From: a virus
Length of the DNA stretch: 64,000 nt
IMG/VR virus record: IMGVR_UViG_3300036790_000396
Span: 32,001-96,000 of that record
Direction: 5' to 3' (one strand)
Made by a program: the position numbers and the translations under genes. Within the stretch, counting starts at the first letter, position 1; each line of letters opens with the position of its first letter. This document shows positions 29,856-64,000 of this stretch, one piece after another. The notes below the pieces were generated by a model that saw only the letters and a program-made list of their open reading frames with translations, searched no databases and had not been told where the DNA came from.

Positions 29856-32800
29856 GTGACGACTGACATTCTCGCCCACTTCGAGGACGAGGGCGTGCGC
29901 AAGGCGGGGGGGCGTCCGCTGCAGCCGCTGCCCGTGGAGGACGGCCTGTACTACCGGGCTCACCATAAGGACGCGCCGTTCGGCCGCGAGCACGCCAGCA
30001 CGCAGAACATCGGCGAGCCGCCGTCCCCTGAGATGGCGAAGTACTGGGAACCGAAGCCGGGATACTCGGCCTTCTGGCATCCGCACCACCTGCGCCAGTA
30101 TCTCGATGAGATGGGCTGGTCAGATGCTGACGACATGAAAGGTCGGCGCGTGCTGATGTTCCGCGGTGCCCCGGTCGGTGAGGGCGCGGACGGAGAGCCG
30201 CGCGTGGTGCCGCATGCCGACAAGCCGGAAGCGTCGATGTCCCCGGGCCAGTTCCGCAGGCGGCTGGAGATCACGCCCGAGCCGGGCACGCGCTGGGACG
30301 ATCACACCTGGGGTCAGGGACCGTCCGGCCAGGTGGCAGATGACGGGTACCGCACTATCCTCGGGGCTGCCCGGCCCGGGCGCGGCCAGGAGACCTGCGG
30401 CTGCTGCCAGGGAAACGGCGAGCACCCTGACGGCACGGAATGCGACCGCTGCGACGGCTTCGGCCTGATGCACCGCGGCGACGACGCTCCGTACTGCCCC
30501 GGGCAGCCGCAGCCCCGCCGCCGGCACTGGCGCGAGGGTGCTGTCATCCCCGAGCCGAAGTGGGATCCGGAGCGCTATGAGAATGAGGGCCGCTCCTACT
30601 CCTCAGAGATGCTCGACAAGGGACACGAGTGGAAGCGCCAGGTCCGCAGGTCCCTCTCCCTGGGCACCATGACCAATGACGAGGCCCGCGAGTCCGGGTA
30701 TCACGGCCAGGGCCATGACCAGGGTGACGACGGGAGCGCGCGCCTGTCCTGGGAGCCGCTGCCGCAGCGCCTCTATCACGTCACCACTGACCTCGCCGGA
30801 GTCCGCGAGCACGGCCTGAAATCCCGCGACGAGCTGGGCCAGCAGCGCGGCGGCGGCCACGGCCTGGGCGGCGGGGAGGACGACACGATCTCCTTCACCG
30901 GTGATCCCGGCACCGCCCGCGGCATCCTGTCGTCCCTGCACGAGTTTCACCGCGCCCTCACCGGCCGCCTGTCCCCGCAGGCGATGTGGGACATGGCCCG
31001 CTCCGGCACCGGCGCCGCCCGTCCCTACCACGAGGGCATCGCGGAGAACTACCGGAGCGGGTGGAAGGACGGTGACCCGCTGCCCCTTCGCCTGCGCCAC
31101 GTCCTGAACGGGCGGGAGGGGGAACGCGAGCTGGCCACCCGCGAGGACATGGAACGCAGGAAAGGTCCCGGCTGGGAGCCCGAGGGCGAGCCCCTCATCG
31201 GAGATCACATGTTCAGCGAATGGTCCCGTCCCGCCTCGGAGGACTCCCGGCGCGAGTCAGCCGCCAGCCTCTACAAGGCATTCGCCTTCCACCGGATGCA
31301 CGCCGGCGGCCGGGAGGACCCGCTGTTCTTCGCGACGGACACGAAGTCGCTCGCGCGCAAGGATCCCCGCAACTTCGCCATCGTCCACGCCTCCCCCCGC
31401 CCCGGGGCCCGCGGCTACCGGGTCCACTCCCTGGGCGAGTGGCGCACCGCGGCCGGCGACGCCGTCAGCGTCCACCACTACGAGCGCCTGCGCGACAAGG
31501 GACAGCAGCGCGAGGCCGTTCGCGTCTCGGACGCTCCTCCTCCCGACCACGCGGAGTACTGCGGCCCCGGGGCGCGCACCGTCTGGCTGCACGAGGACGA
31601 CCGTGACCCGCGCTGCTCCGAGTGCGGCCACCGCGTCGCGGATCCCGCCACCGGGAAGCCGCCCGCCCGGACCCGCGAGCGTCCCCCTCGCCAGTGGGGT
31701 GCCGAGGTCGTCAACCGGCAGCGGGCGAAGCGCGCCCAGGGAGCACGCGGTCACTGGTCCCCGATGGACTGGGCAGCGGAGAACCCGCACCGGGCGGTCA
31801 CCCGCATCGCCCAGGACTCCCTCGCGGAGCAGTACCCGGACCTGGCCCGCACCATGCAGCTCCCGGACGAGCATGACATCTACCAGGAGAGCATGGAGGG
31901 GAACAGGCTGCTGCGCCGCATGCTCGGCCGCAACGGCTACCCGCAGCGGGAGGCTGCCCGGGCATTCGTCATGCCGCATGACCACCCGGAGGCCGGCGTC
32001 TCCCAGCCGGTTCTCGACGAGGACGGGCAGCCCGGCGTGGCACTGCTCCGTTCCCGGTTCACGCCCCTGATCCTCGCCCACGAGGCCGGGCACCTCCTGC
32101 ACGTCCACCACGCCGGGATCGACGCGGGCCCCTACTCCCACCGTCACGGGGAGGAGGCCGGGAGCAGGATGCCCGACGAGGCCATGCACGGCCCGGAGTT
32201 CTCCCGGCATTTCGCCGGAGCCCTCGATGCCATCTCGCCGGGCGCGGGCAGCGATCTCCTCCGCCACCGTGCCGATGCCGCCGCCCTGGTGAGCAACTAC
32301 CGCCGCCGGTTCCACAGTCTCCCCCCGGTGGAGGCGTCGATGCCCGAGCCCGACTACGACCCCTCCGAGCCGCTGCCCCAGGGACGCGGCCTCTTCTGGC
32401 GCCTGCACGACCCCGACGACCGCCCGCTCACGGAGCCGCACGCCCGCAGCCGCCGCGTGGACTGGGACTGGCTGAAGCCGGGTGAGACTGACCCGGACAC
32501 CGGCCTGAAGAACGTGCACATCCAGACGGGACTGCGCGGTTTCTCCGCATTCCAGTCACCGCACCAGCTGCACCGGTACATGGAGGAGTACGGCTGGTCG
32601 GAGGCGGGGCCGGACGGCGAGCACGCGTGGCCGGATTCCAGCCAGGTGGTCGCCTTCCACGGCAAGCAGGTGGGCCGGGGCGACGACGGCGAGCCTCTCG
32701 TCATCCCGCACCCGAACGAGAAGTGCTGCGGGCGCATCATCCACTCCGGCATGGACTGGGACGAGTTCGAGCACCACGTGCAGCGCACCATGGGCAGCGA

Positions 32801-35800
32801 CACCTCGTCTTCCCCCTGGAACCAGCAGCACGCGCACGAGAACTCCCCGGAGATCCGCTCGATCGAGCGGCATCATCACCCGCTGCGCCGCGGCCGGTTC
32901 TACCCGCGCGCGCTGCGCGGCGGCCGGTTCTACCCGCACGAGGGAGCGCTGATGCGTCACTTCGCGGCCGGCCCCGAGGACTACGGGATGGACCACCGGC
33001 CTGACACTGGCGGCCCCCCGCTGCATGACCTGACCGACAGCAGCGAGACGGACTGGAGCCTGCCCGCTGACTACTACGACCGGATGCACGAGTACAGCCA
33101 GAACTATGATGCCGATAACCGCTACGGCATCGCCGAGTCCGAGCGGAAAGTGCGCCGCTACCGGGGGCAGCCGGACAAGCGCGTGAGAGTCTGGCGCGCT
33201 GCGCCGGCCGTGAACCCGGAATCCCGTAACGGCAAGCGCGGCGAAATCAACCACGGCGACTGGATCGGGCTGAGCAGGCAGAAAGCCGTCATGGAGGCTG
33301 CGAAGGAGAACGACCCTCCGTCCGGCAGCCTGCCCGCAGACCATCCGCGCCGCTATCACATCTGGTCCGCGATGGTTCCGGCGAAGCACGTCCGCAACGC
33401 GGACGGGGATCTCACCGAGTGGGGCTATGCCGGCCCCGACATCAAGGACATCACGCACTTCAGCGAGTACTGCAGCCACCGCGCCCGCGCGAAGCGCGAG
33501 GGGATCCTCCGGCACTTCGCCGGGGATTCTCCCGCGACCGGGCACTACGAGGAGCCCACGGGCGGATCGCTCTACCCGGTGCGGCACGTGTTCACCGCCG
33601 TCCACCCGGACGGCACCCGCGCCGACCTCCGGTACGTCCTGTCAAAGTCGGGGCGGAAGGGCGCGATGGACTCGCGCTTCCATATTCCGGCCGGCTACGG
33701 CGAGTCCCTCGGAGTCCCGCTCGCGCGGGCCGCCCGGCGCATGCACCCGCAGGCGAGGATCACCGGCATGCCCGGCGTCGGCCAGGACTGGGACTCGCTC
33801 CTGCCCTCGGTCACCTCACTGCACCGCGGCCTGACGCTGCGCCTCCCCCAGCCGGATCACTCTTTCCTCCACGACGACTCGGTGCCGAAGTCACGCCGGG
33901 CCGCGCGCCTGATGGAGCTGATGGCGGGGCACCCGTCGATGCACTGGGCCAGCCGCCGCGGGCTGGCCGCCGCCGAGGAGGATTTCGGCAATCACGAGTT
34001 CCGCAGGCCCGGCGATACCCAGGTGATGCTCAGCGCGGACGCGCCGCGCCGTGAGGACGTGGAGACGGATCCCGAACGGCTGCTCGCGCAGGACGTCCAC
34101 GAGCACGCGGCCCCGCACTGGGAGGTGCCGCTGAGAGAAGGCGCCCCCGTGAGCGTCACCTCCGTGCGCTGGCGGCAGGGCAGCGGCCCGTGGAGCAAGC
34201 ACCTGTTCCGGGGCGGCCGGCCGTTCACCGCCGCCCGGCAGCGGGAGGGCGACGAGCGCGAGTGGAACGGCTACACGCTGCGCTACCGCACCGAGGACCA
34301 GGGCGAGCGCAAGCCCAGGCACGTCATCGAGGCGTTCCCCGCGGACGGCACGGTCGCCGGGCGGCTCACCTGGTACGGCGCCACCGGGAAGATCCACCGG
34401 ATCGAGACGGCCGGCCCTGAGGACGCCCGCGGTGAGTCCGGCGACGGCTTCGGCAACGGCGCCGATCACCGCCGCAAGGGGCTCGCGACCGCGATGTGGG
34501 ACTGGTCGCAGGAGATGACCCCCAGGGCCCGCCATTCCGGTGACCAGACCGGCATGGGCACGGAATGGGCCCGCTCCCTGCGCCGCAAGGGCGCCCGCCG
34601 TGACCCGGCGCTTCCCAACCCGCACACGGGCGGCGACGAGTGGTTTCATGGCAGCCCCTGGAAGTTCGGCCAGTTCGGGGAGAACAGCAGCACGCTGGAA
34701 TTCGAGGATGATCCTCATGACACCAGCCACTGGAACGCCCTCCTGGGCCACCATTTCGCGGCCAGCCACAAGACCGCCGAGGAGTTCGCGGGCGCCGAGC
34801 ACTCCGCAGATCCTGACGGCAGCTACGACGATGGCGAGCCGGCGCGGAACATCATCCACGCCCGGCTGCACCTCACGAACCCGAAGATCTATGCCTCCGA
34901 GCACGACATGGACCAGGAGGCATACGAGCACGAGTGGAAGGCCGGCAACCACCACGACCTCCATCATGAGCCCGAGCTGCGCGATGATGAATGGGGCGGC
35001 GAATACGATCCCGATTATGACGAGCGGCCCCCGACCTACCAGTACGCCGGGCACGGCGACCGGATGCGCTCCCAGGAAGAATCTGACCCGTCCTACTGGA
35101 ACCAGTCACGTTCCTACCACCCGTACGCCACCGGCTGGCTGAATACCCACCCGGACAAGTACTCCATTGCGCAGCGCTTCAGGGACCGGCTGAAGGCCAG
35201 GGGCCACGACGGCATCGTCTACGGCAACGAGTTCGAGGGCTCCCAGATCGGCAAGGGCGACAAGCATCACCTGGCGGCGATTGCCTTTCACCCGCACCAG
35301 GTCGACGTGACCCAGCGGCACAGCGGCCCGGAGTGCATCGAGCCGGAGGCAGCCGGGCGCTCCTGGCCGGGCAGCCAGCAGCACCCTCTCCCCGGCATGC
35401 CGCGCGTGAGCGTCCTGCGGCACTTCGCTTCCGGCTATTTCGATGAGGTGAACTGGGACGAGATCCACCCCGAGATCGCGGGAGAGCCCCTCCACCGCGG
35501 CGTCGGCGTGACCCTTCCCGGTCACCTGCACCGCTTCGTCCACGACAGGGCGCTGCCCCGCCAGCAGCGCGCGGAGGCGCTCCTGGACTACCTGGGCGAC
35601 TCGGAGAAGCACGGCTACGGACGGGATTCGCAGGCGGGCCTGGGCACTCACTGGTCGATGCGCCGGGACACGGCCGAGAACTTCGCCGAGAACGCCGCGA
35701 AGCACGAGGGCGGGGGCGAGCCCCACCCTGACTACGGGATGATCCCCGGCGAGCGCGAGCACGCCGTCTACACGCCGCCGCCGCGGCCCGCGTCCAGGCC

Positions 35801-36674
35801 CGGCACCGCCGTGGTCTTCCATTCCCGCGTTCCGGACCGTGACGACATCGACGAGCGCGCCGGCGACGACATGGGCGTCTACCACCCCTACTCGCATGAC
35901 GAGGCGGAGGTGCCCGTGCGCTCCGGGGCCGGGATCGGCCTGACCGGCGTCTCCTGGGCACCGGTCCACGACGAGGACGACCCGCGCTCGTGGGACGGCC
36001 CGCAGTACGAGCACCACGAGTTCGGGGAGCCCGACTACCGTACGGCAGCCCGGTCGGGGAGCATGCCGCACCCGGACTACGATCCGTCGGAGGAACTGCC
36101 CGAGGGGCGCGGGATCTTCTATCGGGCGCACGACATGCGCCGTCCGCTCGATGAGCAGCACGCCCGCAGCGCCCCGCTCAGCCACGGCTACCGCCCGTTC
36201 CAGCAGAACCCCGTCTTTTCTGTCGGCCAGCGCGGCTACTCCTCTTTCCGCAGCCCGCACATGCTCAGCTCGTACATGGACGAATACGAGTGGGAGCCCG
36301 CGAAGGACCGGGAAGCAGTTGCCTTCCACGGGAAGCAAGTCGGGGTCGGGGAGGATAACGAGCCGCTCGTAGTCCCGGCCCCGGATCCGCATTGCTGCGG
36401 GCGCGTGATTCATTCCAGGATGCCGTGGGAGGAGTTCGAGCGGAAGACGTGGCCCTCGCACCTTAATGACCCGGAGTCGGAGGAGCACGGCTACCATGAC
36501 GTCGGCGCGCTCCCGCAGCCGTTGCGCCAGCCCTGGGCACCGGAACGCTGGGTGCCTGGTGCCCGCCCCTGGGAAAGCCCGGGGGACCGGTCGGAGCGCC
36601 GTCACCAGGAGAAGGAAGACCGCCGCCGCGAGCGCCGGGCATCCGCGCTGACCCTTACGGAGGCCATGGCATGA
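29856..36674 (+). CDS. Giant polyvalent protein (about 2270 aa): multiple ART-like domains, CXXCXGXG Zn finger, zincin peptidase, GNAT acetyltransferase
   Basis: GTG 29856 with AGGAGG; HEAGH...HGPEF; RRKGLATAM; FHGS...HFA...GHDGIVY.N.FEG; LHRG...HWS...EAEV; three YR.H...GYS.F...DGEP repeats. Confidence 0.85.
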   Translation: MTTDILAHFEDEGVRKAGGRPLQPLPVEDGLYYRAHHKDAPFGREHASTQNIGEPPSPEMAKYWEPKPGYSAFWHPHHLRQYLDEMGWSDADDMKGRRVLMFRGAPVGEGADGEPRVVPHADKPEASMSPGQFRRRLEITPEPGTRWDDHTWGQGPSGQVADDGYRTILGAARPGRGQETCGCCQGNGEHPDGTECDRCDGFGLMHRGDDAPYCPGQPQPRRRHWREGAVIPEPKWDPERYENEGRSYSSEMLDKGHEWKRQVRRSLSLGTMTNDEARESGYHGQGHDQGDDGSARLSWEPLPQRLYHVTTDLAGVREHGLKSRDELGQQRGGGHGLGGGEDDTISFTGDPGTARGILSSLHEFHRALTGRLSPQAMWDMARSGTGAARPYHEGIAENYRSGWKDGDPLPLRLRHVLNGREGERELATREDMERRKGPGWEPEGEPLIGDHMFSEWSRPASEDSRRESAASLYKAFAFHRMHAGGREDPLFFATDTKSLARKDPRNFAIVHASPRPGARGYRVHSLGEWRTAAGDAVSVHHYERLRDKGQQREAVRVSDAPPPDHAEYCGPGARTVWLHEDDRDPRCSECGHRVADPATGKPPARTRERPPRQWGAEVVNRQRAKRAQGARGHWSPMDWAAENPHRAVTRIAQDSLAEQYPDLARTMQLPDEHDIYQESMEGNRLLRRMLGRNGYPQREAARAFVMPHDHPEAGVSQPVLDEDGQPGVALLRSRFTPLILAHEAGHLLHVHHAGIDAGPYSHRHGEEAGSRMPDEAMHGPEFSRHFAGALDAISPGAGSDLLRHRADAAALVSNYRRRFHSLPPVEASMPEPDYDPSEPLPQGRGLFWRLHDPDDRPLTEPHARSRRVDWDWLKPGETDPDTGLKNVHIQTGLRGFSAFQSPHQLHRYMEEYGWSEAGPDGEHAWPDSSQVVAFHGKQVGRGDDGEPLVIPHPNEKCCGRIIHSGMDWDEFEHHVQRTMGSDTSSSPWNQQHAHENSPEIRSIERHHHPLRRGRFYPRALRGGRFYPHEGALMRHFAAGPEDYGMDHRPDTGGPPLHDLTDSSETDWSLPADYYDRMHEYSQNYDADNRYGIAESERKVRRYRGQPDKRVRVWRAAPAVNPESRNGKRGEINHGDWIGLSRQKAVMEAAKENDPPSGSLPADHPRRYHIWSAMVPAKHVRNADGDLTEWGYAGPDIKDITHFSEYCSHRARAKREGILRHFAGDSPATGHYEEPTGGSLYPVRHVFTAVHPDGTRADLRYVLSKSGRKGAMDSRFHIPAGYGESLGVPLARAARRMHPQARITGMPGVGQDWDSLLPSVTSLHRGLTLRLPQPDHSFLHDDSVPKSRRAARLMELMAGHPSMHWASRRGLAAAEEDFGNHEFRRPGDTQVMLSADAPRREDVETDPERLLAQDVHEHAAPHWEVPLREGAPVSVTSVRWRQGSGPWSKHLFRGGRPFTAARQREGDEREWNGYTLRYRTEDQGERKPRHVIEAFPADGTVAGRLTWYGATGKIHRIETAGPEDARGESGDGFGNGADHRRKGLATAMWDWSQEMTPRARHSGDQTGMGTEWARSLRRKGARRDPALPNPHTGGDEWFHGSPWKFGQFGENSSTLEFEDDPHDTSHWNALLGHHFAASHKTAEEFAGAEHSADPDGSYDDGEPARNIIHARLHLTNPKIYASEHDMDQEAYEHEWKAGNHHDLHHEPELRDDEWGGEYDPDYDERPPTYQYAGHGDRMRSQEESDPSYWNQSRSYHPYATGWLNTHPDKYSIAQRFRDRLKARGHDGIVYGNEFEGSQIGKGDKHHLAAIAFHPHQVDVTQRHSGPECIEPEAAGRSWPGSQQHPLPGMPRVSVLRHFASGYFDEVNWDEIHPEIAGEPLHRGVGVTLPGHLHRFVHDRALPRQQRAEALLDYLGDSEKHGYGRDSQAGLGTHWSMRRDTAENFAENAAKHEGGGEPHPDYGMIPGEREHAVYTPPPRPASRPGTAVVFHSRVPDRDDIDERAGDDMGVYHPYSHDEAEVPVRSGAGIGLTGVSWAPVHDEDDPRSWDGPQYEHHEFGEPDYRTAARSGSMPHPDYDPSEELPEGRGIFYRAHDMRRPLDEQHARSAPLSHGYRPFQQNPVFSVGQRGYSSFRSPHMLSSYMDEYEWEPAKDREAVAFHGKQVGVGEDNEPLVVPAPDPHCCGRVIHSRMPWEEFERKTWPSHLNDPESEEHGYHDVGALPQPLRQPWAPERWVPGARPWESPGDRSERRHQEKEDRRRERRASALTLTEAMA
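32883..32937 (+). repeat. Imperfect 30-bp-period tandem duplication (LRRGRFYP / LRGGRFYP)
   Basis: ctgcgccgcggccggttctacccgc ... ctgcgcggcggccggttctacccgc. Confidence 0.8.
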
Positions 36675-39600
36675 GCAGCCGGCAGGCAGCGTGGACGCCG
36701 TCCGAGCGCATCTTCGGCCGAACATGGGGCCTGGATCACCGGCTGTTCAGCGGGGACCGCATGCGCCCGGAAGTCCGCAGGACACTCCTGGCGCGGCTGG
36801 ACAGCGCGCTGGAGCCCGTCCTCGGCCCGCAGTGGCAGGTCTTCACCCGCGCCTACCTCATGGGCTCGCAGGCGTCCCGCTGGACCTCCCCGGAGCTGGA
36901 GGGCAACGGGGACCTCGATGTCATCCTCGCGGTCGACCCGGGTCATCCCCACGAGGACGCCGGGCACATCAACGGCATCCTGCGGCGCACGTTCGACCGC
37001 GGGGACTGGCACCCGCCGTTCGATCCCCGGGGCACCTACGACCTGACGGGCTACGTCAACCCGCTGGCCTGGAACGTCACGGACATCAGCCCCTACGCTG
37101 CCTATGACCTGACCGGAGACCGCTTCGCCGTGGACCCCCCCGACCTTCCCGACTGGTCCCCGGACCAGTTCCCGCAGGGAAAGGCCCTGCTGCAGGAGGG
37201 CCGGGCTCTCGGTGCCCAGGCCCGCGCGCTGCTGCGGATGCCCGAGCCGTTCCGCTCGCAGGAGGCGCGGCGGCTGTGGGACTACATCCGCTCCGGCCGC
37301 GACGAGGGATTCGCTCCCGGCGGGCTGGGCTGGCAGTCTGCCGGGAATGTACTCGAAAAGATGCTCGACCAGATGCCCGGCAACCTCGTCGGCCGCCTGA
37401 AGGAAGCCGTCTACGGCAGGCAGGTCACTGCCGGCGCCTACGACTGGGCTGCTGACGAGGGGCCGTACACCTGGGAGGAGATCGGCGACCGGTACCCGCG
37501 CGTCTACGGCGAGGACTCCGGCGACAGCGAGGGAATCGGCTGGGCGGCCTCGCACCTGTACCACGACCGTCCCGGCCATTCGCAGGACGACAGCACGGGC
37601 GAGGAGTCCGCCGACGACATGGAGTTCCACCCGCGGACGGTCGACCCGGCCCGGATTGACTACATGCGCTCCGAGCCGGGAGACCCGCGCGTGACCCGGG
37701 CCCGCAGGGGATATGAGAGCCAGCAGCCGGAAAAGGTCCCGCCGCTGATCCTGGTGCACCGTAACGGCGTGTTCATGCCAGCCGACGGCCATCACCGGGC
37801 AGAGGGCGCGGCCAGGGCCCGCAAGCCGGTGCGTGCCTACGTGGCCTATTCCCCGCACGATGCCGAGCCGTTCTCCGACGGGGAGCGGGGCCCGTTCAAC
37901 GGTGCCGGGACCAGGGAACGGCCCCCGCTGACGGACCAGGACGGCCGGCAGTTCCGGATATCCTACCCCGGGTTCCCGCATACGGCCGAGACGGAGATCC
38001 CGCCGCGGGAGGCGTCGCTCCTGAGCCACTTCGCGGCCTGGGAGGACGAGTACGACGATGACCATGGCGACGGCCAGGATCCCGATCGCTACGTCGAGTG
38101 CGACCAGGGCCACCGCCACTGGGGCGCCGCCGGGGCCGCTGGCCTCCTGATCCGCCATAAGCGCCCCTCGGGCGAGCACGAGTACCTGCTGCAGAAGCGG
38201 TCCCCGTACGTGCAGCACGGCGGCACCTGGTCCACGCCCGGCGGTGCCCTGGGCCACGGCGAGACGCCCGAGGAAGGCGCGGTGCGCGAGGGCGAGGAGG
38301 AGCTTGGCGGGCTGCCCGACGATCTCTGGCACAGCCACACGAGCCATGACGAGCACGGCGGATGGAAATACTCGACTGTCGTCATGGACTCCCCGCGCCG
38401 GTTCGAGCCTGAGGGCGGCGGCGAGAGCGACTGGGAGCACGGCGGCCACGGCTGGTTCACGCCGGAGGAGATGAAGGACCTCCCGCTGCACCCCGGATTC
38501 GCGGCGAGCTGGGACCGGGTCCGCAAGTCCGGGGCCCTGCGCCAGGCCGTCGTCGATCCCGCCAGCCTGCCCCGCGACCAGCTGAACGGGATCACGCGTG
38601 CCCGCGTCTACTACCCGCCGGGCCAGTCGGAGGACCGGCGCCTCCTCGACGTGGCGAGCAGGCCGCGCCCCGGCACCCGCGTGTGGCGCGGCGAGCTGCG
38701 CCCGGAGGGGGAGAACCCGGGGAACGTGCAGTCGGTCGGCATGCACTGGACCGTGAACCCCAGGGCGCTGCTGCTGCGCGGCAATGAGCCGGGGTGGAGG
38801 CAGCACGTCTGGCAGGGCGTCGTCGATGACTTCGGCTCCCAGGCGTTCCCCCGCAGCCATGATGTGTGGAGGGCGGTGCGCAGCGGCGACGGGGAGCACG
38901 AGATCCGTTTCCGCCCCGGTGCCCGGGTGCGCCTGGAAGGCGCCTACGTGTCCGGCAGCGGCACGGGGGACCGCCGGGAGCCGATGGGGATCCTGGATCC
39001 CCTCCACCCGGAGAGTACCGACCCGCGCTGGGAATGGCACCCGATGGACCGGCCCGTGACCGTCCGGCACCGCCCCGGGGCGCCCGGCTCTCCCTCGCGG
39101 GGAGGTGCTGACTACGCGTCCCTGGGCATCAGCCACGAGGGCGTGGCCCACGATGACTCCAACCCGTACCTGATGGTGGCCGTCGTCCCGCCCGAGCATG
39201 TCTCCGCCGCCCTCGCGGAGTCGATGGAGCCCCTTACCCGCCATGACCCGGAGCCGCCGGAGGAGCATCACGTCACGATGCTGTACCTGGGCAAGGAGAA
39301 GGACCACACCCCGGCGCAGCGCGCGAAGCTGCCCGGCCTGGTCCGGGAGTGGGCGTCCTGCCAGCAGCCGTTCACCGTCCGCGTGCAGGGCGCGGGGACG
39401 TTCGCTAACGAGGGCGAGCACACCGTCCACGCCCTGGTCGACATGCCCGACGGCCATCACCTCCGCACGTCACTGGAGGAGCACCTCGCCGGCCATGGCA
39501 TCTCGTGGCCGCGGGATCACGGGTTCGCCCCGCACCTGACGCTGGCCTACTCGCAGCAGCCGGTCCGGTTCCTGCCCAGTGTCCCGCGCTCGGAATGGAC

Positions 39601-39679
39601 CGCCGGCCAGGTGCACTGGTGCCGCGGGAAGGACTGGCAGCCTGTCCCGCTGGGCCGCGCGCCTGCTAAGGTTAATTGA
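36671..39679 (+). CDS. Multi-domain protein: Pol-beta nucleotidyltransferase, ParB/Srx, NUDIX, ART-like, 2H phosphoesterase
   Basis: MGS...GDLDV; ADGHHR; GGALGHGETPEEGAVREGEEELG; VWRG..MHWT..EHEI; HVT (39269) and HLT (39533). Confidence 0.88.
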   Translation: MSSRQAAWTPSERIFGRTWGLDHRLFSGDRMRPEVRRTLLARLDSALEPVLGPQWQVFTRAYLMGSQASRWTSPELEGNGDLDVILAVDPGHPHEDAGHINGILRRTFDRGDWHPPFDPRGTYDLTGYVNPLAWNVTDISPYAAYDLTGDRFAVDPPDLPDWSPDQFPQGKALLQEGRALGAQARALLRMPEPFRSQEARRLWDYIRSGRDEGFAPGGLGWQSAGNVLEKMLDQMPGNLVGRLKEAVYGRQVTAGAYDWAADEGPYTWEEIGDRYPRVYGEDSGDSEGIGWAASHLYHDRPGHSQDDSTGEESADDMEFHPRTVDPARIDYMRSEPGDPRVTRARRGYESQQPEKVPPLILVHRNGVFMPADGHHRAEGAARARKPVRAYVAYSPHDAEPFSDGERGPFNGAGTRERPPLTDQDGRQFRISYPGFPHTAETEIPPREASLLSHFAAWEDEYDDDHGDGQDPDRYVECDQGHRHWGAAGAAGLLIRHKRPSGEHEYLLQKRSPYVQHGGTWSTPGGALGHGETPEEGAVREGEEELGGLPDDLWHSHTSHDEHGGWKYSTVVMDSPRRFEPEGGGESDWEHGGHGWFTPEEMKDLPLHPGFAASWDRVRKSGALRQAVVDPASLPRDQLNGITRARVYYPPGQSEDRRLLDVASRPRPGTRVWRGELRPEGENPGNVQSVGMHWTVNPRALLLRGNEPGWRQHVWQGVVDDFGSQAFPRSHDVWRAVRSGDGEHEIRFRPGARVRLEGAYVSGSGTGDRREPMGILDPLHPESTDPRWEWHPMDRPVTVRHRPGAPGSPSRGGADYASLGISHEGVAHDDSNPYLMVAVVPPEHVSAALAESMEPLTRHDPEPPEEHHVTMLYLGKEKDHTPAQRAKLPGLVREWASCQQPFTVRVQGAGTFANEGEHTVHALVDMPDGHHLRTSLEEHLAGHGISWPRDHGFAPHLTLAYSQQPVRFLPSVPRSEWTAGQVHWCRGKDWQPVPLGRAPAKVN

Positions 39680-46603: not shown

Positions 46604-47101
46604 CCGCTCAGCCGCGAGGCCGTCTCCCGGGAGACCGAGCATCACGTCACCCAGTACGACCCCGAACGTCTCCGCGGCCACCTGGAGAGCGAGCACTCCA
46701 GCTACGGACTGCTGGGGCGCACGGTCCCCAGCGATCCCGCAGGGATGGAGCAGGCGCACCGCAGCGCGCACGAGCGCGAGGACCCGTTCTTCGGCGCGTG
46801 GCACGGGAACACCGAGCCCGCTGACCCGCAGGACTTCACGGCGATGCACGCCGAGCACCCCGACGAGGAAGACCACTACCGCGCCTACGAGACCGGCGAG
46901 CACCAGCCCCACGGCCTCGGCGCCCACCTGCTGAACGATCACGGCTACACGCCGCAGGCGGTCGAGGAGTCCTGGAAGGGCTACGACCCGGACGAGCCCC
47001 GCGACCCGTCGCTGGGCTTCCACCGGCTGCGCGAGATGCACCGGCAGGCGCACGACTACGAGCACGACGTCTACGGCGTGAACCCCTGGAGGAGCCAGTG
47101 A
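46568..47101 (+). CDS. His-rich -1 frame extension of the 45066 protein (ORF track starts it at 46745)
   Basis: 59 sense codons with no start codon upstream of ATG 46745; contain the SREAV linker and LRGHLESEH motif. Confidence 0.65.
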   Translation, partial: SVAAGWQPAAAGPLSREAVSRETEHHVTQYDPERLRGHLESEHSSYGLLGRTVPSDPAGMEQAHRSAHEREDPFFGAWHGNTEPADPQDFTAMHAEHPDEEDHYRAYETGEHQPHGLGAHLLNDHGYTPQAVEESWKGYDPDEPRDPSLGFHRLREMHRQAHDYEHDVYGVNPWRSQ

Positions 47102-50506: not shown

Positions 50507-51700
50507 ATGACCGTGACCGACGATTTCGGCTACTCACTTTGGACGGAGGCGTCTGCGGACCATGACGCCGAGCGGCATGCCGCGGCGCTCGACGAGGCCG
50601 GGGCGCACCTCGCGTCCGTGATGCCGTTCCTGCTGCAGGCGGAAACCGAGCGGGAGCTGGGCCACCGCCTGTCGTTCGCCGGCATGCGGCTGCGCACCAT
50701 CGAGGCGTCCACCGGCGTCCCCGTCCCCGAGCTGGAAGACATGGCCCGGCGCCACTTCGCCCTGCTCAAGGAGGCCCTCCCCGAGGGCGTCGATCCCCTC
50801 CAGCAGCTCATGCAGTCCGGGCACTCCTACGGCTCCGGCCCGGAGAAGCCCGACGAGCACGATGAGGGCCCCGACTTCTCCGGCGGCTACTCCGAGGTCC
50901 CGATGGGCTACCCCGGGGGTCCCGACCCGTCCGTCGTCACGCCGTACCTCACGCAGCCCGGTCCCGTCCAGGAGGCCACCGGGTCCCGGCACCGCCGCCA
51001 CGCCCAGGGCGGCAGTGACGTCTCCCTCGCCGAGACGCCCCCCGACACCGATACCGGATTCGGCTCCGTCGACCTCGACCCCGCCGACCAGTCCAGCACC
51101 CAGTCCGGCCGCAGCGCCACGTCCGCGCGCCGCTACGCGTCCCGCCGCTACGCGGACTCCACCGCCGGCTCGCCGGCGGGCGGCATGAGCACCGTCCCCG
51201 CAGGCGTGGGCGGCATGCCCTCCAGCCCGGACGGGTCGTCGTCCTCCCCCGCGGCGCAGCCGCTGCCGCCCCTGGACCAGACCGTCACCAGCCAGGGACC
51301 CGACACCAGCTTCGACCTCACCCCGACGCCCAGTGCCGGCGCGACGTCCGGCACCGACTCGGGCACGTCGGCGATCACCGGCACCGGGTCGCGCCGCGAC
51401 CCTGTCGCCGCGCAGATCCGCGCGGTGGCCAGCTCCGTGGCGGTGTCCAACCCGCAGCTCCCCGCCAGCGAGTGCCGCCGCGTGGCGCGCCGCGTGGTCG
51501 GCGGCTACCTGCGCCGCGCCGACCTGGACAGCTCCGTCATGTCGGATGATCCCGGTGACGGGGACGGCCCCGCAGGCGGCGCCGCCCCCCAGGGCGGCGG
51601 TGGCAACGCCGTGGAGCACGGCGCGGAGTTCCAGGTCGGCAAGTCGGTGGCCCGCGGCCTGATGGGCGGCGCCGAGGATGCCGCCGCGGCGGCCTTCTAG
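50507..51700 (+). CDS. Probable head/prohead-associated low-complexity protein
   Basis: Ser/Gly/Pro-rich; RRHA, RRYA, RRA linkers; shares GSGPE.PD.HD and GY.EVP.G.PG with the 45066 protein. Confidence 0.8.
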   Translation: MTVTDDFGYSLWTEASADHDAERHAAALDEAGAHLASVMPFLLQAETERELGHRLSFAGMRLRTIEASTGVPVPELEDMARRHFALLKEALPEGVDPLQQLMQSGHSYGSGPEKPDEHDEGPDFSGGYSEVPMGYPGGPDPSVVTPYLTQPGPVQEATGSRHRRHAQGGSDVSLAETPPDTDTGFGSVDLDPADQSSTQSGRSATSARRYASRRYADSTAGSPAGGMSTVPAGVGGMPSSPDGSSSSPAAQPLPPLDQTVTSQGPDTSFDLTPTPSAGATSGTDSGTSAITGTGSRRDPVAAQIRAVASSVAVSNPQLPASECRRVARRVVGGYLRRADLDSSVMSDDPGDGDGPAGGAAPQGGGGNAVEHGAEFQVGKSVARGLMGGAEDAAAAAF

Positions 51701-55392: not shown

Positions 55393-55422
55393 GCTGTCTC
55401 CTGTCGTCTGAGGGATGCTCCA

Positions 55423-55444: not shown

Positions 55445-55448
55445 TTTC

Positions 55449-57294: not shown

Positions 57295-57674
57295 GGGCGC
57301 GGCCACCCGGGCAGCCCTTCGAGCCGCAGCACGTCCATCCCCGGCAGCCGCGGGCTGCTGCTGTATCCCGCGCGGAGCCCGAGCAGCTCCGCGTCGAGCA
57401 CCCGGCGGGCGAGTTCCAGCACGTCGTCTTCCACCTGAGATGGGCTGAGCGCAGCACCGTAGAGTCTCGCGCCGGGGGTGCCGTCCTTTCTCACGCGCTG
57501 GGCCTCGTTCAGCCGGATCATGTGAAGCCGGGGCTCGCCGCCGTGGAGCTGCCGGAACTGGAAGTTAATTGACCTGGCCCGCATGCTGTAGCCGGAGAAG
57601 GGCATCCTCACGTCAGGCAGGTCACCGCTGAACGTGAGTTCCCAGTGACAGTAGCCCGAGGAGCTGATGTCCAT
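57291..57674 (-). CDS. hypothetical protein
   Basis: AGGAG RBS; coupled to neighbours on both sides. Confidence 0.7.
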   Translation of the reverse strand: MDISSSGYCHWELTFSGDLPDVRMPFSGYSMRARSINFQFRQLHGGEPRLHMIRLNEAQRVRKDGTPGARLYGAALSPSQVEDDVLELARRVLDAELLGLRAGYSSSPRLPGMDVLRLEGLPGWPRP

Positions 57675-58192: not shown

Positions 58193-58199
58193 GCCCTGC

Positions 58200-58221
58200 A
58201 TATTACCAATAAATCTTGGTA
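58200..58221. promoter_or_regulatory. Perfect operator TACCAA-taaatc-TTGGTA with leftward TGgTAATAT
   Basis: Divergent junction. Confidence 0.85.
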
Positions 58222-58267
58222 TATGCCACTCGTCTGCGGCCCGTCCTCGGAAGCAACGGGAGGCACG

Positions 58268-61200
58268 ATGCCACAGCAACGTTTTGTCCGTATAGCGCAT
58301 GATCCCGGAGACCCGCAGCTTTGTTCCCATTGCTTCGGGCCTGAGACGAGATACCTCACGCCGGATGGCGTCAAGACCTTGGGCGAGACGGTCGGGACTG
58401 CCCAGCGGGTAATGACCGCGGATTCCCTCCAGTCTCACGACGGGCGCTGGGCCGATGCTGAGATCCGCTCGTTCGGCGTACAGCAGCTGCACCGGATCAC
58501 CCTGAAGCGCAACAAGGTAACCAAGGTGATCCGGGCGACTGCCGGGCACCGCTGGCTGGTGCGCCGCCCGGATCGCATTGTCACGACGGATCGTCTTCTC
58601 CCGGGCCACCGGCTGGCCACTGCCCGGCTCCCGCGCCAGGAGCTGGCGATGGACCGTGAGGGCATCTGCCATGGTTTCTTTTTCGGCGACGGAAGCCTGC
58701 GCCGCACGGAGAACGCTGATTACGGCAAAGTGATCCTGTGGGGGCAGAAGCGCGAGCTTGCTTCTTATTTTGAGGAAATAGCAGGTCGTCCCGGCGTCGA
58801 GAAGCACACTCCGAATGGCGTTCCCGGTCTTGCGTTCCAGGCCGGGATGAAGGGCTATGCCAAGTCGCTGCCGCTGCTGACGATGCCGCCCGAGTACCTT
58901 TACGGCTGGCTGGCCGGCTACTTTGCCGCAGACGGGTGGAGCGGGGGCACCAACGCCTCTCTCTCGTCTGCGGTGCGCGCTCACCTGGAGCACGTACGCG
59001 ATATCTGCACGCTGCTCGGCATAGGTACTTACGGTATTACCTCGAAGACGCGCACTGGATTCGGGAAGGAATCTGAGATCTTCGAGGTCGGGTTCAGCCA
59101 GTCCGACCTCAATACGGATTTTTTCCTTCGCAGTGATCACCGCGAGGCCCGCAGGCCGCCGCCCCAGGAACGTTTCGGATGGACAGTCGTCTCCGTCGAG
59201 CCAGATGCTGAAGAAGAAGTCTTCTGCGCGATTGTTCCGGAGAATGAGCGCTTCGCGCTCGAAGACAACATCCTCACCATGAACTGTCCTTTTTGCGGCT
59301 CCGGTCAGATTACGGGCAGATCTGACGGGGGCATAGACTGTGCTTTCTGCGGACAAAGCTTCATAGTTCGGGTACAGCCCGCTTTCCCAGGCATGCCGCA
59401 AGCGCCCGGAATGGGCGCTCCCACCGATGCCGGGCCCGAGGGCATCCCGGTGGGCCTTCCCCCCGGTGCCGGGCCCGAGGGCCTTCCCCCCGGTGCCGAC
59501 GGCGGCATGCCTCCCGGCGGGGACGAGGAAGGCGGCGGCTTCCCGCCCGGCGGTGACGAGGACGAAGAGGCCCCTCCCGGCGCGGATGACGAAGACGAGG
59601 ACGACGGTGCTCCTCCCTTCGCGAAGAAATCATCGCGCCGCCTGGGCGCCCACGAGCATCCTGATGACGACCTGCGCCGTCACCTCGCCGAGGAGCACGG
59701 CCACGGCTGGATCGAGTACCCCGGCGTCAGCGAGATCAGCCGCATCCACGATGCCGACCACCGCAACCGCGGCGCCGCCGCCCACCGCGGGGACATCGCC
59801 CCGCCGCTGCAGTCTCTTCCCGAGCCTGCGGCCAGGCACTGGCCGGCCCACCGCCGCGAGCGCTTCGACGATCCTCGCCTCGGCGACAGCTACGGCGACC
59901 GCTTCGGGGCTGAGGATGTTGCGGACCAGTACCGCCGCGAGACGCACGGACAGCCTTCCCCGGACTCGGACTACGGCCGGTTCGCCCCCGCGCCCCCGGA
60001 GCGCCGTCACCTGTCCGTCCGCCGCTACCGCACCATTTCCGGCGACGTGCTCCCCGAGGACGCCTACATCCGCCATCTCGCCGTCCTGCACTCCGGCGGC
60101 AGCTCCCGCGTGCTGGCGCTGCTGCGCCGCGAGGCGGCATCCGGGGGCGACGACGGCAGGCTGCCCCCCCGCAGCGTCATGACGCAGCGCCAGCACCTGC
60201 AGGCGACCCGGGACATGCGCGACCGTCTCGCCGCGTCCGGGTTCCCGATGGACGCCCCGTCAGGCGACGAGGACATGCGGATGAACCCGTCGTGCAGGCT
60301 GGAGACGGGGCATCACATCTCATTCGGCGTGGAGCTGCGCGGCGGGAAGCACTCGATGTTCATCACCCACCCGGCGGACATGGGCCAGGGCCGCACGTTC
60401 CTGGAAGTCGGCCTGGGGCGTGACCCGTCCCGCGTGGCGGATCTCGCCCGCCGCGAGCTGGGCTGCCCTCATGTTGCGGGGGAAATGACGGAACAGCTCC
60501 GCGGCCACGGCGACGAGCCCCTCAGGCAGCCGCCCTCGGCCCGGTCGGTGAGGCACGAGGCGGAGGGCACGCAGCCGCGCGAGGCGTCCCTGCGGTACCG
60601 TGCCGCGTTCGACTGGGACAATGCCACCGAGGACGAGGCCGACCGTGAGTTCCAGCGCCGTGAGGACGGGATGCAGGATGCGGTAGAACGCCACGGCGTG
60701 GACAGCATCCTGCGTCCCAACCGCGTGAACCGGATAGAGACCGGTCACGAGATCTCTTTCGAGCACCATCCCGCGGAGGGGGAGGGAGATGATTACTGGA
60801 CGGTCGGCGTCAACCATCCGGCTGACTCCTGGACCGGGGATGCGGAGCGCTACCCGCGCTACTACTGGAAGGGCTTCCGCGGTCCTGACGACGACGTGGT
60901 CCGCCAGGCGGTGCAGCACCTGCGCTCTCCCCGGACGATGGACGTGATGCGCGAGCAGTCCCGCCGTGCGATGAGCCGCGAGGCATCCCTGCGGCGCCGG
61001 GCCGACCTGGATTACGACGAGGTCCCTGAGGGGCACGCGATGTCCAAGCGGGAGCAGATCAGCCGGCTGCGCGAGATGCGCGGGCGCCTGGAGGACCACG
61101 GGATCCGGATGCTGCCGTCTGATAGCGGCATGGCTCCCTACTTCGACCTGGAGACCGGGCACCGCATCCTCCTGGGCCTTTCGCAGCAGCACGGGGACTG

Positions 61201-61465
61201 GCACATGTACGTCAACCACGCCCGCTCCGGCCCCGCAGCCGGCATGCTGGCCGTGAACCTGGGCCCTGACTCCGGCCGCGTCCCGGACCTCATGCACCGC
61301 GAGCTGGGCTGCCGTACCGTCATGAATGCGATGATGAGCCAGTCGGCGAACGCGGCGAGGACGGAGCCGGGGGAAAGGCAGCCTAGGGTGCGCCATGTCG
61401 CCGAGGGCGTCATCCCGAACGAGCTGCGGCAGCGTGAGGCATCGGCACGACGGAGGATCGCGTGA
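58268..61465 (+). CDS. Head-region polyprotein: Zn ribbon (intein-interrupted), acidic Pro-rich linker, His module, three tandem repeat domains
   Basis: GGGAGG RBS; spliced SH-CPFCGS...CAFCG; REAA/REAS linkers between the ETGH repeats; directly upstream of the portal gene. Confidence 0.8.
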   Translation: MPQQRFVRIAHDPGDPQLCSHCFGPETRYLTPDGVKTLGETVGTAQRVMTADSLQSHDGRWADAEIRSFGVQQLHRITLKRNKVTKVIRATAGHRWLVRRPDRIVTTDRLLPGHRLATARLPRQELAMDREGICHGFFFGDGSLRRTENADYGKVILWGQKRELASYFEEIAGRPGVEKHTPNGVPGLAFQAGMKGYAKSLPLLTMPPEYLYGWLAGYFAADGWSGGTNASLSSAVRAHLEHVRDICTLLGIGTYGITSKTRTGFGKESEIFEVGFSQSDLNTDFFLRSDHREARRPPPQERFGWTVVSVEPDAEEEVFCAIVPENERFALEDNILTMNCPFCGSGQITGRSDGGIDCAFCGQSFIVRVQPAFPGMPQAPGMGAPTDAGPEGIPVGLPPGAGPEGLPPGADGGMPPGGDEEGGGFPPGGDEDEEAPPGADDEDEDDGAPPFAKKSSRRLGAHEHPDDDLRRHLAEEHGHGWIEYPGVSEISRIHDADHRNRGAAAHRGDIAPPLQSLPEPAARHWPAHRRERFDDPRLGDSYGDRFGAEDVADQYRRETHGQPSPDSDYGRFAPAPPERRHLSVRRYRTISGDVLPEDAYIRHLAVLHSGGSSRVLALLRREAASGGDDGRLPPRSVMTQRQHLQATRDMRDRLAASGFPMDAPSGDEDMRMNPSCRLETGHHISFGVELRGGKHSMFITHPADMGQGRTFLEVGLGRDPSRVADLARRELGCPHVAGEMTEQLRGHGDEPLRQPPSARSVRHEAEGTQPREASLRYRAAFDWDNATEDEADREFQRREDGMQDAVERHGVDSILRPNRVNRIETGHEISFEHHPAEGEGDDYWTVGVNHPADSWTGDAERYPRYYWKGFRGPDDDVVRQAVQHLRSPRTMDVMREQSRRAMSREASLRRRADLDYDEVPEGHAMSKREQISRLREMRGRLEDHGIRMLPSDSGMAPYFDLETGHRILLGLSQQHGDWHMYVNHARSGPAAGMLAVNLGPDSGRVPDLMHRELGCRTVMNAMMSQSANAARTEPGERQPRVRHVAEGVIPNELRQREASARRRIA
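58331..59284 (+). mobile_element. Intein (318 aa) with LAGLIDADG endonuclease
   Basis: H|CFGPETRYLT...ATAGHRW...HGFFFGDG...WLAGYFAADG...EEVFCA...NILTMN|C. Confidence 0.92.
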
Positions 61466-64000
61466 AGGTCAGGTTCTCGCCGACGGCGGCGCTCCAGCGC
61501 GACCAGGCGGTCGCCCAGGGCATGAGCCGGATGCTCGCCCGCGGCGCGGAAGGCGCCCGCGATGACATGACCCCCGAGGTCGCCGAGGCCCGCATCAACC
61601 GGCGGGCATCGCTGCGCCGGACCGGCAGCTACGGCGGGGGAGGAGGCGGCGGAGCCTCTGGAGGCTTCTCGGACATTCAGTTCGCAACCGGGAGGCCCAG
61701 GGATCCTCTCTTCTACTGGAGGCAGAACAACCTCCCGTACGACTTCAGCCAGAACGAGGAGCTGGCGAAAGTCCGTGCCTTCTGCCGGCTGCTGTACCAG
61801 ACCGACCCGATTGTCGGGTCCTGCATCGACATCTTCACGAAGTTCCCCACGATCGGGATGAACCTGGAGTGCCTCGGGCGTGACACGGGAGTCCTGACGC
61901 GCCAGGGCATGCGTCCTATCGGCGAGCTAGCCGGATCTGCCCAGGAGATCCTGACCGTCGGCGGCAAGTGGGCTACGGCGAAGTTCGAGAATTACGGCAG
62001 CAGGCGCCTTTACAAGATCACCCTGCGCCGTAACCGTCGTGAGAAGACGATTTACGCCACAGAAAATCACCGCTGGTTCCGCTGGAATGCGGACAAGGAA
62101 GCAAGGCGCTACGAGGGATCTTTCAATCCTGCTTCTAAGGTTTCGTGGGAGGATGTTCGAGAAATAAGGCTTAAATACGCTGAAGGCGATATTACTCAGA
62201 AGGACCTGGCTTCAGAGTACGGGATAACTCAGCCGGCGATCGGCCAGATAATCAGGCATGGCACCTGGAAGAATCCTCCCGCTGAGAAAAAGGAGCAGGC
62301 AACTAGAGCCTTTCCGGTGAAGGAAGAGGCAGTCACCGCTGACCTCATGCCGGGAGACCGGCTTGTCAGCGGGTGGTCGAAGAACCTCATCCATTCGACG
62401 TTTCCTTCTCCTTTTGGGATCGCGCATGGCATGACGTACGGAGACGGTTCTCTGGAGACATCCGGAGGCGGCTCCTACATCACGCTGTACGGGGTGAAGG
62501 ATCTCCAGATGCTGCCGTATTTCAACGGCTGCCATGTGACGGATCCTCCCTCTGAAGCTCGCCGGAACGGAAGGCGCGTCAGCGGCCTTCCGTCTTCGTT
62601 CAGGCAGCGCCCGACCTTGGACGAAGGGACTTCCTACCTGTACGGCTGGCTGGCTGGCTACTTTGCGGCAGACGGCACCGTGTCCAGTGGCGGAGAGTGC
62701 TACCTAGATACTGCTTTTGAAGACAATGCCAGGTTCATTCAGCATCTCTGCACAGTCTTGGGAATCAAGACCTATGACTATTACGCGTACACGGTGCCCT
62801 TTGTTCAGACGCCTCAGGGAGCTGTCTACGAAAATCACGAATCATACCGCGTGCCCATCGATTCTGCGTCTCTTACGAAGGATTTCTTCTGCATCAGCGA
62901 GCATCGTGCGCGATGGGAAGGGCGCAAGGAACGTCAGCGACGAGAAGAATGGACTGTCATAGGAGTAGAGCGTACAGACCAGGTCGAAGAGGTTTTCTGC
63001 GCTAAGGTTCCCGAAACGGAATCTTTTGTCATCGAGGGAAATATCCTCACCGGAAACTGCAAGGACAGCCGGCTGGAGGATTTCCACGGCGGCCTGTTCT
63101 TCGACGAGGACCATCTCGACTACGAGGAGTTCCTCGTCGACATCGGCCGCGAGTACTGGACTTCCGGGGAGGCGTGGCCGTTCGCCACGTTCAACGAGGA
63201 TCTCGGCATCTGGGATGACGAGGAGCTGCTCAACCCCGACGACGTCAAGGTCGAGCGCAGCCCGTTCCTGAAGGAGCCCCGCTACTTCATCCGGCTCCCG
63301 TGGACCATCCGGCAGATCCTGCAGACGCGCCAGCCCCAGTACGAGTACTCCCGCCTCGTGCAGGAGTACCCCGAGCTGACCGCCTACACGGCGGAGAACA
63401 CGTTCATGCCCGTGTCGAACGTGCTGCTGCGCCAGCTGAAGTTCCGCGGCGACACGTTCAACGTCCGCGGCCTCCCGCTGCTGACCCGCGCCATGCGCGC
63501 GATGCTGCAGAAGGAGATGCTCAACACCGCGCTGGACTCGATCGCGGACCGGCTCTACACGCCGCTGATCCTGTGCAAGCTCGGCGCCTCCGCCACCGAC
63601 CTCGGGACCAGCCAGCCGTGGATCCCCACCGAGGACGACATGGAGAACTTCGAGCTGGCCCTCGACGCCGCCCTCGCCGGGGACTTCCGTGCCCTGATCT
63701 ACAACTTCGCCGTCGACATGGCGCCCGTCCTGGGCCGCGAGCAGATGCCCGACCTCACCCCTGACTTCGAGCGGATCGAGGACACGGTGCTGCAGGTCTT
63801 CGGGCTGTCCCGCACGCTGCTCACCGGTGCCGGGGCCGGGCAGACCTACGCCGCCGACGCGCTGAACAAGGATCTCGTCACCCAGCTGATGAGCCGGTAC
63901 CAGAAGTTCCTTGCCCGCCACTTCCGGCAGCGCGCCCAGGTCGTCGCCGAGGCCCAGGAGCACTACGACTACCGCGAGCACGGCGGCAAGAGGTACGTCA
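61462..64000 (+). CDS. Probable portal protein, intein-containing, 3' truncated; absent from the ORF track because it has no stop in the window
   Basis: GTG 61462 with GGAGG; frame read open through the intein and into the C-extein; DPIVGSCIDIF..FP, YWTSGEAWP, LLNPDDV, RGLPLL.R portal-like motifs. Confidence 0.75.
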   Translation, partial: MKVRFSPTAALQRDQAVAQGMSRMLARGAEGARDDMTPEVAEARINRRASLRRTGSYGGGGGGGASGGFSDIQFATGRPRDPLFYWRQNNLPYDFSQNEELAKVRAFCRLLYQTDPIVGSCIDIFTKFPTIGMNLECLGRDTGVLTRQGMRPIGELAGSAQEILTVGGKWATAKFENYGSRRLYKITLRRNRREKTIYATENHRWFRWNADKEARRYEGSFNPASKVSWEDVREIRLKYAEGDITQKDLASEYGITQPAIGQIIRHGTWKNPPAEKKEQATRAFPVKEEAVTADLMPGDRLVSGWSKNLIHSTFPSPFGIAHGMTYGDGSLETSGGGSYITLYGVKDLQMLPYFNGCHVTDPPSEARRNGRRVSGLPSSFRQRPTLDEGTSYLYGWLAGYFAADGTVSSGGECYLDTAFEDNARFIQHLCTVLGIKTYDYYAYTVPFVQTPQGAVYENHESYRVPIDSASLTKDFFCISEHRARWEGRKERQRREEWTVIGVERTDQVEEVFCAKVPETESFVIEGNILTGNCKDSRLEDFHGGLFFDEDHLDYEEFLVDIGREYWTSGEAWPFATFNEDLGIWDDEELLNPDDVKVERSPFLKEPRYFIRLPWTIRQILQTRQPQYEYSRLVQEYPELTAYTAENTFMPVSNVLLRQLKFRGDTFNVRGLPLLTRAMRAMLQKEMLNTALDSIADRLYTPLILCKLGASATDLGTSQPWIPTEDDMENFELALDAALAGDFRALIYNFAVDMAPVLGREQMPDLTPDFERIEDTVLQVFGLSRTLLTGAGAGQTYAADALNKDLVTQLMSRYQKFLARHFRQRAQVVAEAQEHYDYREHGGKRYV
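61870..63057 (+). mobile_element. Intein (396 aa) with LAGLIDADG endonuclease and an inserted HTH
   Basis: E|CLGRDT...ATENHRW...HGMTYGDG...WLAGYFAADG...EEVFCA...NILTGN|C; lower GC. Confidence 0.92.

Follow-up and report, generated by a model that had tools for sequence, protein, structure and literature searches.

A conserved Arg/Ala peptide motif shared by the head-region proteins of a Bxz1-like actinophage, a candidate processing and packaging signal

The 64,000-nucleotide stretch analyzed here (hereafter the window; bases 32001-96000 of IMG/VR record IMGVR_UViG_3300036790_000396) is part of a complete 146,944-bp virus genome with direct terminal repeats and 68% G+C, for which gene calling by a codon-usage model gave 157 genes. 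The portal protein resembles those of the Cluster C mycobacteriophages (Bxz1 group; ~38-40% identity), and the window is the head-cargo region of a Bxz1-like actinophage. Its head-region genes adjoin on the upstream side, and are interleaved with, the genes for the portal, a protease-scaffold fusion and the capsid protein, and their large products are polyvalent proteins, that is, strings of unrelated or repeated enzyme modules. These proteins share a short Arg/Ala peptide motif, approximately (R-E)-(A/G)-S-L-R-x-(R/H)-(R/F/T)-A with A, S or D next and frequently an acidic stretch thereafter; its short forms include R-T-A-(A/S) and L-x-R-H-F-A. The motif is placed at the N-termini of proteins and modules, at inter-module joints and at the C-termini of two proteins; it is real, specific to head proteins, and kept in ~100 related loci as well as in Bxz1. 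Relatives (>100 loci, mostly from uncultured high-G+C phages) were collected via the portal and protease, and Bxz1, a cultured phage of another genus, was used for replication.

A giant polyvalent protein of 2272 amino acids (aa) is encoded at 29856-36674 (this and all features below are on the + strand); a blastn search with its gene against cultured phages found no match. Its GTG start, already assumed in an earlier note on this DNA, is supported by an AGGAGG 5 nt upstream. The giant contains a ParB-C-like module (PHROG match), one HExxH zincin-like motif and three DUF6098-like repeats, in addition to an ART-PolyVal match at E 0.01, which is below the cut-off. It begins M-T-T-D-I-L-A-H-F-E, and the N-terminal tag DILAHFE (aa 4-10, 29865-29885) parallels the M..DLIRHFAS of stand-alone relatives described below. 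Further copies are the joint WRTAAG (31440-31457), the joints HEGALMRHFAA (32937-32969) and REGILRHFAG (33495-33524) directly ahead of and directly behind the ParB-C-like module, SLRRKGA (34575-34595), the joint SVLRHFAS (35409-35432), and the joint YRTAARS (36036-36056) ahead of the third DUF6098-like repeat.

The 1002-aa protein at 36671-39679 combines NUDIX and 2H phosphoesterase domains, both above Pfam cut-offs, and carries REASLLSHFAA (38006-38038). The presence of these two domains in one chain, like the ParB-C-like module of the giant, is a trait of polyvalent proteins. No family match was assigned to three other head-region proteins, of 502 aa (45066-46574; ARTASLQ at 46119-46139 and KTASLRALA at 46389-46415), 642 aa (47098-49026; N-terminal FLRHMRQAAS at 47119-47148, ASRRVRRTA at 47512-47538 and 47731-47757, and the C-terminal end ASLRARQPA at 48997-49023) and 397 aa (50507-51700; the weaker copies RRHFAL and RRYASRRYA, the latter at 51128-51154). 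The 1065-aa protein next upstream of the portal (58268-61465) has the N-terminus MPQQRFVRIAH, an intein, whose place behind the ATG at 58268 supports that start, also taken in the earlier note, and three tandem modules followed in turn by REASLRYRAA (60578-60607), REASLRRRAD (60977-61006) and the C-terminal REASARRRIA (61433-61462). The portal gene itself (61462-64000, continuing to window-equivalent 64842; genome 93462-96842) encodes a leader with RRASLRRTG (61600-61626) ahead of a Gly-rich linker. N-terminal copies are found in the giant, the 58268 and 47098 proteins and the protease. All peptides listed in the earlier note were found where it had placed them, to within 3 nt, among them HEGALMRHFAA at 32937 and RRASLRRTG of the portal leader. 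Just beyond the portal lies a second giant of 2565 aa (genome 98419-106116; window-equivalent 66419-74116) with at least four paralogous 'LHRG...W(S/T)' modules, which are shared with the first giant and a 396-aa protein at 97232 and have a sub-threshold ART-PolyVal match only.

Motif counts were compared with per-protein composition-preserving shuffles. The loose pattern [RK]-x-A, which the earlier note had advanced as the cut rule, is too permissive and occurs near chance (85 observed vs 75.2 ± 7.5 expected in seven window proteins, not significant; z = 2.0 in twelve head proteins). The narrower forms behave differently. In the seven window proteins, L.{1,2}HFA was observed 6 times vs 0.11 expected and R[ER]ASL 4 times vs 0.05 expected, and neither occurs in the other 150 proteins. 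The twelve head proteins contain 18 copies of R[TE]A[AS] vs 2.1 expected (z 11) and 54 of [RK].A[AS] vs 21 expected, and R[TE]A[AS] is found twice vs 5.6 expected in the other 145. Overall, the enrichment of ASLR, L-x(1-2)-HFA and R-[TE]-A-[AS] in head-region proteins is 8- to 50-fold, and other proteins lack these forms or have fewer than expected, which bears out the predicted head specificity. All eight ASLR copies of the genome are in head-region proteins; the three copies outside the window fall in the second giant and the protease fusion, which together make up ~17% of the out-of-window residues, and an arithmetic estimate puts the chance of this placement at ~0.005. The enrichment recurs in Bxz1, where gp87, gp89, gp94, gp95 and gp97 have nine RTA[AGS] vs 0.5 expected and twelve neighboring proteins are at chance, and in 304 open reading frames (ORFs) of relatives homologous to head proteins (RTA[AGS], 124 vs 22; [RK].A[AS], 820 vs 389). 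In 147 relatives' ORFs homologous to non-head proteins both patterns are at or below expectation (RTA[AGS], 3 vs 6.4). Among the non-head proteins of the present genome and of the relatives there is some depletion of R[TE]A[AS] (2 vs 5.6) and [RK].A[AS] (60 vs 80, z -2.6); this small effect would fit avoidance of accidental cut sites.

These counts bear on the reading that the motif has no shared function and reflects Arg/Ala composition, tandem duplication of modules, or pattern-picking by eye. Such a reading can draw on the chance-level frequency of generic [RK]-x-A, on the three copies of the 58268 protein that belong to tandem repeat units, and on a de novo screen for 8-mers that recur, scored by BLOSUM neighbor counts, which did not single out the motif (real maximum 11 vs shuffled maximum 10). 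The 8-mer screen was uninformative, with words rich in Pro, Asp, His, Trp and Cys, which are rare, high-scoring residues, prevailing, and tail-fiber repeats dominated the exact 5-mer counts. However, the composition-preserving shuffles never reach the observed counts, non-head proteins of matching composition lack the motif or are depleted in it, both the held-out proteins and Bxz1 confirm it, and it is kept at aligned positions while its flanks vary. The shuffles and hold-outs already largely refute a chance or compositional origin, which we regard as highly unlikely.

Codons vary freely among the copies (Ser is encoded by TCG, TCC or AGC), so it is the peptide that is under selection, and an explanation by DNA repeats was rejected on these grounds. 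A linker acting at the DNA level to promote recombination of modules would suit the shifting of modules among carrier proteins, but no conserved DNA word accompanies the motif. Similarly, RRASL, REASL and RTAS fit the R-x-x-S site of a basophilic Ser/Thr kinase, but many copies have no Ser (RTAA, RHFAG, RRVAA) and there is no Pkinase match in the phage genome. Neither the kinase site nor the DNA-level linker seems credible to us as more than an outside chance.

The position of the motif was examined relative to boundaries of homology, which were defined by searching every ORF of the relatives by blastp with eight head-region proteins and clustering the local-alignment ends. The expectation that the peptides mark domain boundaries was upheld: a motif was found no more than 12 aa from 15 of the 91 boundary clusters, compared to 6.5 ± 2.1 for randomly placed motifs (P ~2e-4), and ~14 of 19 internal motif positions match a boundary. 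In the giant (aa counted here from ATG 29808), the ParB-C-like block 1048-1225 is exactly flanked by HEGALMRHFAA and REGILRHFAG, and the block 239-555 extends from WREGA to WRTAAG. Another block starts at SVLRHFAS (aa 1872-1883) and ends at YRTAARS (aa 2073-2109), with twelve ends of high-scoring segment pairs (HSPs) in each of these intervals and 13 HSPs listed over aa 1872-2109. In the 36671 protein, REASLLSHFAA separates a block ending at 412-418 from one starting at 452-483.

The different forms of the motif can substitute for one another. The module of the 58268 protein that stands behind REASLRYRAA and REASLRRRAD is a stand-alone protein of 161-170 aa in the relatives L012, L014 and L016, with an N-terminus reading V-N-D-L-I-R-H-F-A-S or M-A-R-G-D-D-L-I-R-H-F-A-S (in general M..DLIRHF(A/G)); a word-based homologue search for the stand-alone module gave 3 proteins only. 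Because DLIRHFAS and ASLRRRAD head homologous modules, the HFA and RRRA forms are interchangeable and constitute one motif family. LxxHFA had been proposed as a capsid-targeting tag alongside the cleavage motif; these homologues agree with its use as an N-terminal module tag but not with a code separate from the cleavage motif. Moreover, in L091 and L096 GLLEHFAS and the ParB-C-like module come immediately after the protease domain, and since this same module lies in the giant of the present phage, tag and module travel together between carriers. Such tag-plus-module cassettes sit in differing carrier proteins across the relatives.

As anticipated, the protease gene is located outside the window and downstream of the portal. 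The protease forms the N-terminal part (domain at genome 111714-112361) of a protease-scaffold fusion of 1.77 kaa (genome 111714-117020; window-equivalent 79714-85020) ~15.7 kb beyond the window end, and is followed by the genes for the cement protein (genome 121335-122072) and the capsid protein (122104-123123), so that it lies between the portal and major capsid genes. It matches the PHROG 'head maturation protease' family and has homologues in Bxz1 (gp95), phage G (gp19; 38% identity) and among the head proteases of Erwinia jumbo phages. The domain has no Pfam match even at E ≤ 10, PF03420 (Peptidase_S77) finds nothing in the genome, and a PDB sequence search with the protease gave no match. 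An AlphaFold2 (AF2) model from a 42-sequence alignment (predicted local distance difference test score, pLDDT, 81.8; an earlier 4-sequence model with pLDDT 38.6 was set aside) has T4 gp21 as its best PDB neighbor (5jbl_A; Z 10.4, root-mean-square deviation 2.8 Å over 128 residues) and herpesvirus assemblins as the next (Z 6-7.5). The protease, as modeled, has the T4 gp21/assemblin fold. The residues H79, S137 (in TSMG), H163 and E189 are invariant in the 42 sequences. Its own N-terminus reads V-L-R-K-Y-A-S, and M-(L/I)-(R/L)-K-(Y/F)-A in ~45 relatives. Beyond the protease domain the fusion has a ParB-C-like module, Zn ribbons, a variable middle differing in length by >700 aa among relatives, and a conserved coiled-coil, scaffold-like C-terminus. 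R[TE]A[AS] occurs six times in the fusion, and alignment shows that relatives, and in part Bxz1, keep several of the RTA-type sites in the same positions.

Processing could instead be performed by another enzyme, either the zincin-like domain embedded in the giant or a host protease. According to the prediction of Iyer et al. (2017), polyvalent proteins process themselves by means of zincin-like peptidases embedded in them (PMC5512222), and the giant carries the HExxH motif LILAHEAGHLLH together with weak M66/reprolysin matches. These matches (E 0.1-0.25) are far below Pfam cut-offs, however, and the motif also occurs in capsid, portal and scaffold proteins across ~100 loci. Furthermore, the Bxz1 head proteins are equally enriched in the motif and no HExxH was found in them, which makes a zincin unlikely as the general mechanism. 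Processing by such an enzyme is considered quite unlikely.

The motif extends to the structural proteins of the head. The N-terminal region of the capsid protein contains GLRRVAARKSDDY, kept as GGL(R/K)xRVA(S/K)xKSDDYV in ~28 relatives and present as GLGRFAKASDDYV in Bxz1 gp97, and the portal leader is kept as NRR..AS(L/V)GRRTA before the Gly-rich linker down to 34% portal identity. The capsid protein, portal and scaffold thus share one short motif with the protease and with internal proteins, which is the pattern of T4, phiKZ and SPN3US, in which the motif is the cut site (PMC5694885). With respect to the bond that may be cut, the one experimental datum is from phage G, whose capsid protein is homologous to the present one (PDB 6wkk) and matures from 282 to 255 aa according to N-terminal sequencing (PMC5646251). 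In the sequence of phage G gp27, removal of 27 residues places the cut after EGRVALA27. This site (E-G-R-V-A-L-A27) resembles SLRALA of the 45066 protein and the second giant, with a basic residue upstream and Ala at P1. The phage G datum and the natural C-termini that end in the motif Ala weakly favor a scissile bond after the terminal Ala or Gly. A cut after Ala, as the earlier note had proposed, is in agreement with the phage G capsid N-terminus (PMC5646251).

Taken together, the motif probably, albeit with considerable room for doubt, serves polyvalent head cargo as a signal for both processing and targeting. A prohead protease of the gp21/assemblin fold would recognize the motif as its signal and would cut after its last small residue (Ala or Gly at P1), thereby trimming the capsid protein, portal leader and scaffold and freeing individual cargo modules within the prohead. 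The motif peptide probably doubles as a capsid-targeting tag, as does the capsid-targeting sequence (CTS) of T4 internal proteins. Cleavage, the bond cut, and the packaging and ejection or injection of the modules are inferred by analogy.

The principal alternative is that the motif is an uncleaved docking or targeting peptide, a basic amphipathic segment that binds scaffold, portal, inner capsid or DNA and so recruits modules to the prohead. The motif is basic and often followed by an acidic run, it stands at the extreme N-terminus of stand-alone modules and of the protease, and it forms the extreme C-terminus of the 58268 and 47098 proteins, with nothing beyond it to remove. On the other hand, it is also located in the capsid N-terminus, the portal leader and, repeatedly, the scaffold-like tail, which are classic trimmed regions, and the phage G capsid protein is cut beside a similar peptide (PMC5646251). 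Docking alone also leaves unexplained why unrelated enzymes join exactly at the peptide. We regard docking without cleavage as rather unlikely, although it deserves more weight than the other alternatives.

Several observations count against processing at the motif. The C-terminal ends in the motif and the N-terminal copy of the protease fit docking at least as well. The characterized gp21-family proteases (T4, phiKZ and SPN3US) cut after Glu (PMC5694885), and many copies have Glu 2-3 residues upstream (RE|AS, HE|GA), so that the scissile bond could be there instead. Moreover, the phage G site aligns with HGFRRLG71 of the present capsid protein and not with its GLRRVAA copy. About 5 of the 19 internal motif positions coincide with no detectable homology boundary. 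Finally, the search patterns were tuned after inspection of the data, so that the weight is borne by the replications outside the window, in Bxz1 and across the family, and the family-scale z-scores are inflated because the relatives share ancestry.

That one protease and one short motif serve many head proteins is textbook knowledge for T4 and phiKZ. The system described here resembles T4 in having a short peptide at the extreme N-terminus of head-region proteins, as in the CTS of proteins packed into the T4 prohead, in a single short motif common to capsid, scaffold and internal proteins, and in the predicted fold of the protease (Z 10.4 to 5jbl). It differs in that the motif is Arg/Ala-based with a probable P1 Ala or Gly, whereas T4 uses (L/I)-x-Glu, in that the motif recurs within proteins, its many internal copies linking unrelated enzyme modules into giant polyproteins, and in that the protease yields no match to Pfam Peptidase_S77. 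According to work on T4 cited in PMC5694885, foreign proteins fused behind the CTS are packaged; the plug-and-play payload idea of the earlier note is thus already established for the T4 CTS. In phiKZ, 201phi2-1 and SPN3US, many head proteins, including the portal, capsid protein, protease and ejection proteins, are cut at one short motif, and the propeptides hold several sites (PMC5694885). One short motif likewise spans many head proteins here, as deduced from the sequence. Those phages, however, cut after Glu at (A/S/G)-x-E and have no protease-scaffold-cargo fusions of the kind seen here.

Herpesvirus assemblin cuts at Ala|Ser. It shares the predicted fold of the present protease (Z ~7), and the motif together with phage G suggests an Ala cut with Ser, Ala or Asp next; unlike here, herpesviruses have two sites in one scaffold precursor and no repeated code over many cargo proteins. 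Phage G has a homologous protease (38% identity) and capsid protein with a cut after RVALA, but a single known site and an AT-rich genome. Iyer, Burroughs, Anand, de Souza and Aravind (2017; PMC5512222) predicted that polyvalent proteins are delivered with DNA and undergo processing. The present proteins are alike in being multi-domain and putatively virion-associated, with NUDIX, 2H phosphoesterase and ParB-related modules and candidate ART-like and zincin-like ones. They differ in having a conserved peptide at the joints that also occurs in the capsid, portal and scaffold proteins; the paper proposes embedded zincin- or assemblin-like peptidases, describes no motif serving as linker or tag between domains, and nowhere uses the word 'linker' (PMC5512222).

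The class of mechanism is therefore already known, comprising a prohead protease, a short motif, N-terminal targeting peptides and packaged enzymes, and the processing of polyvalent proteins has been predicted as well. The advance lies in the specifics and breadth, not in kind. A literature search found no description of the Arg/Ala motif, its use at inter-module joints, the equivalence of its forms or its conservation in Bxz1-like phages, nor did it turn up a cleavage site for Bxz1 or a gp21-fold phage protease with the likely P1-Ala specificity. More tentatively, and with the balance tipping toward doubt, Bxz1-like actinophages and their soil relatives may use a transferable cassette of tag plus P1-Ala cut site that marks modules for encapsidation and release, the modules standing alone, within giants, or on the portal, protease or scaffold without loss of function, and other lineages may have arrived at unrelated linker codes to the same end (e.g., KVGPKGYIHGW). 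Should the motif indeed serve the protease and targeting, the mature virion proteome would become predictable from sequence for a large and mostly uncultured phage family that includes the laboratory Cluster C mycobacteriophages, and the swapping of enzyme modules among carrier proteins would be explained. The gp21/assemblin protease family would also gain an Ala-specific member, for which the gp21-fold phage proteases described so far offer no precedent, and a defined peptide would become available with which to load actinophage capsids, much like the CTS in T4.

A different linker was observed in L009 (IMGVR_UViG_3300027795_000039), an unrelated 52%-G+C provirus whose polyproteins (805-20119) fuse portal, MuF, ART and NUDIX modules. 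These are separated ~11 times by the conserved KVGPKGYIHGW(I/V), and a literature search for the string 'GYIHGW' found no paper. L009 has no match to the present protease family; a weak Peptidase_S78 match lies inside a 1376-aa frame.

Two related LAGLIDADG inteins are encoded in the window, one in the portal (aa 137-532, 61870-63057) and one in the 58268 protein (aa 22-339, 58331-59284). Both have Cys at +1, a terminal Asn followed by Cys, and the common motif LYGWLAGYFAADG. The portal intein (C137...N532|C533) matches PF14528 above the cut-off, and the portals of most relatives have no intein and are continuous across the junction (...LE|CKD...).

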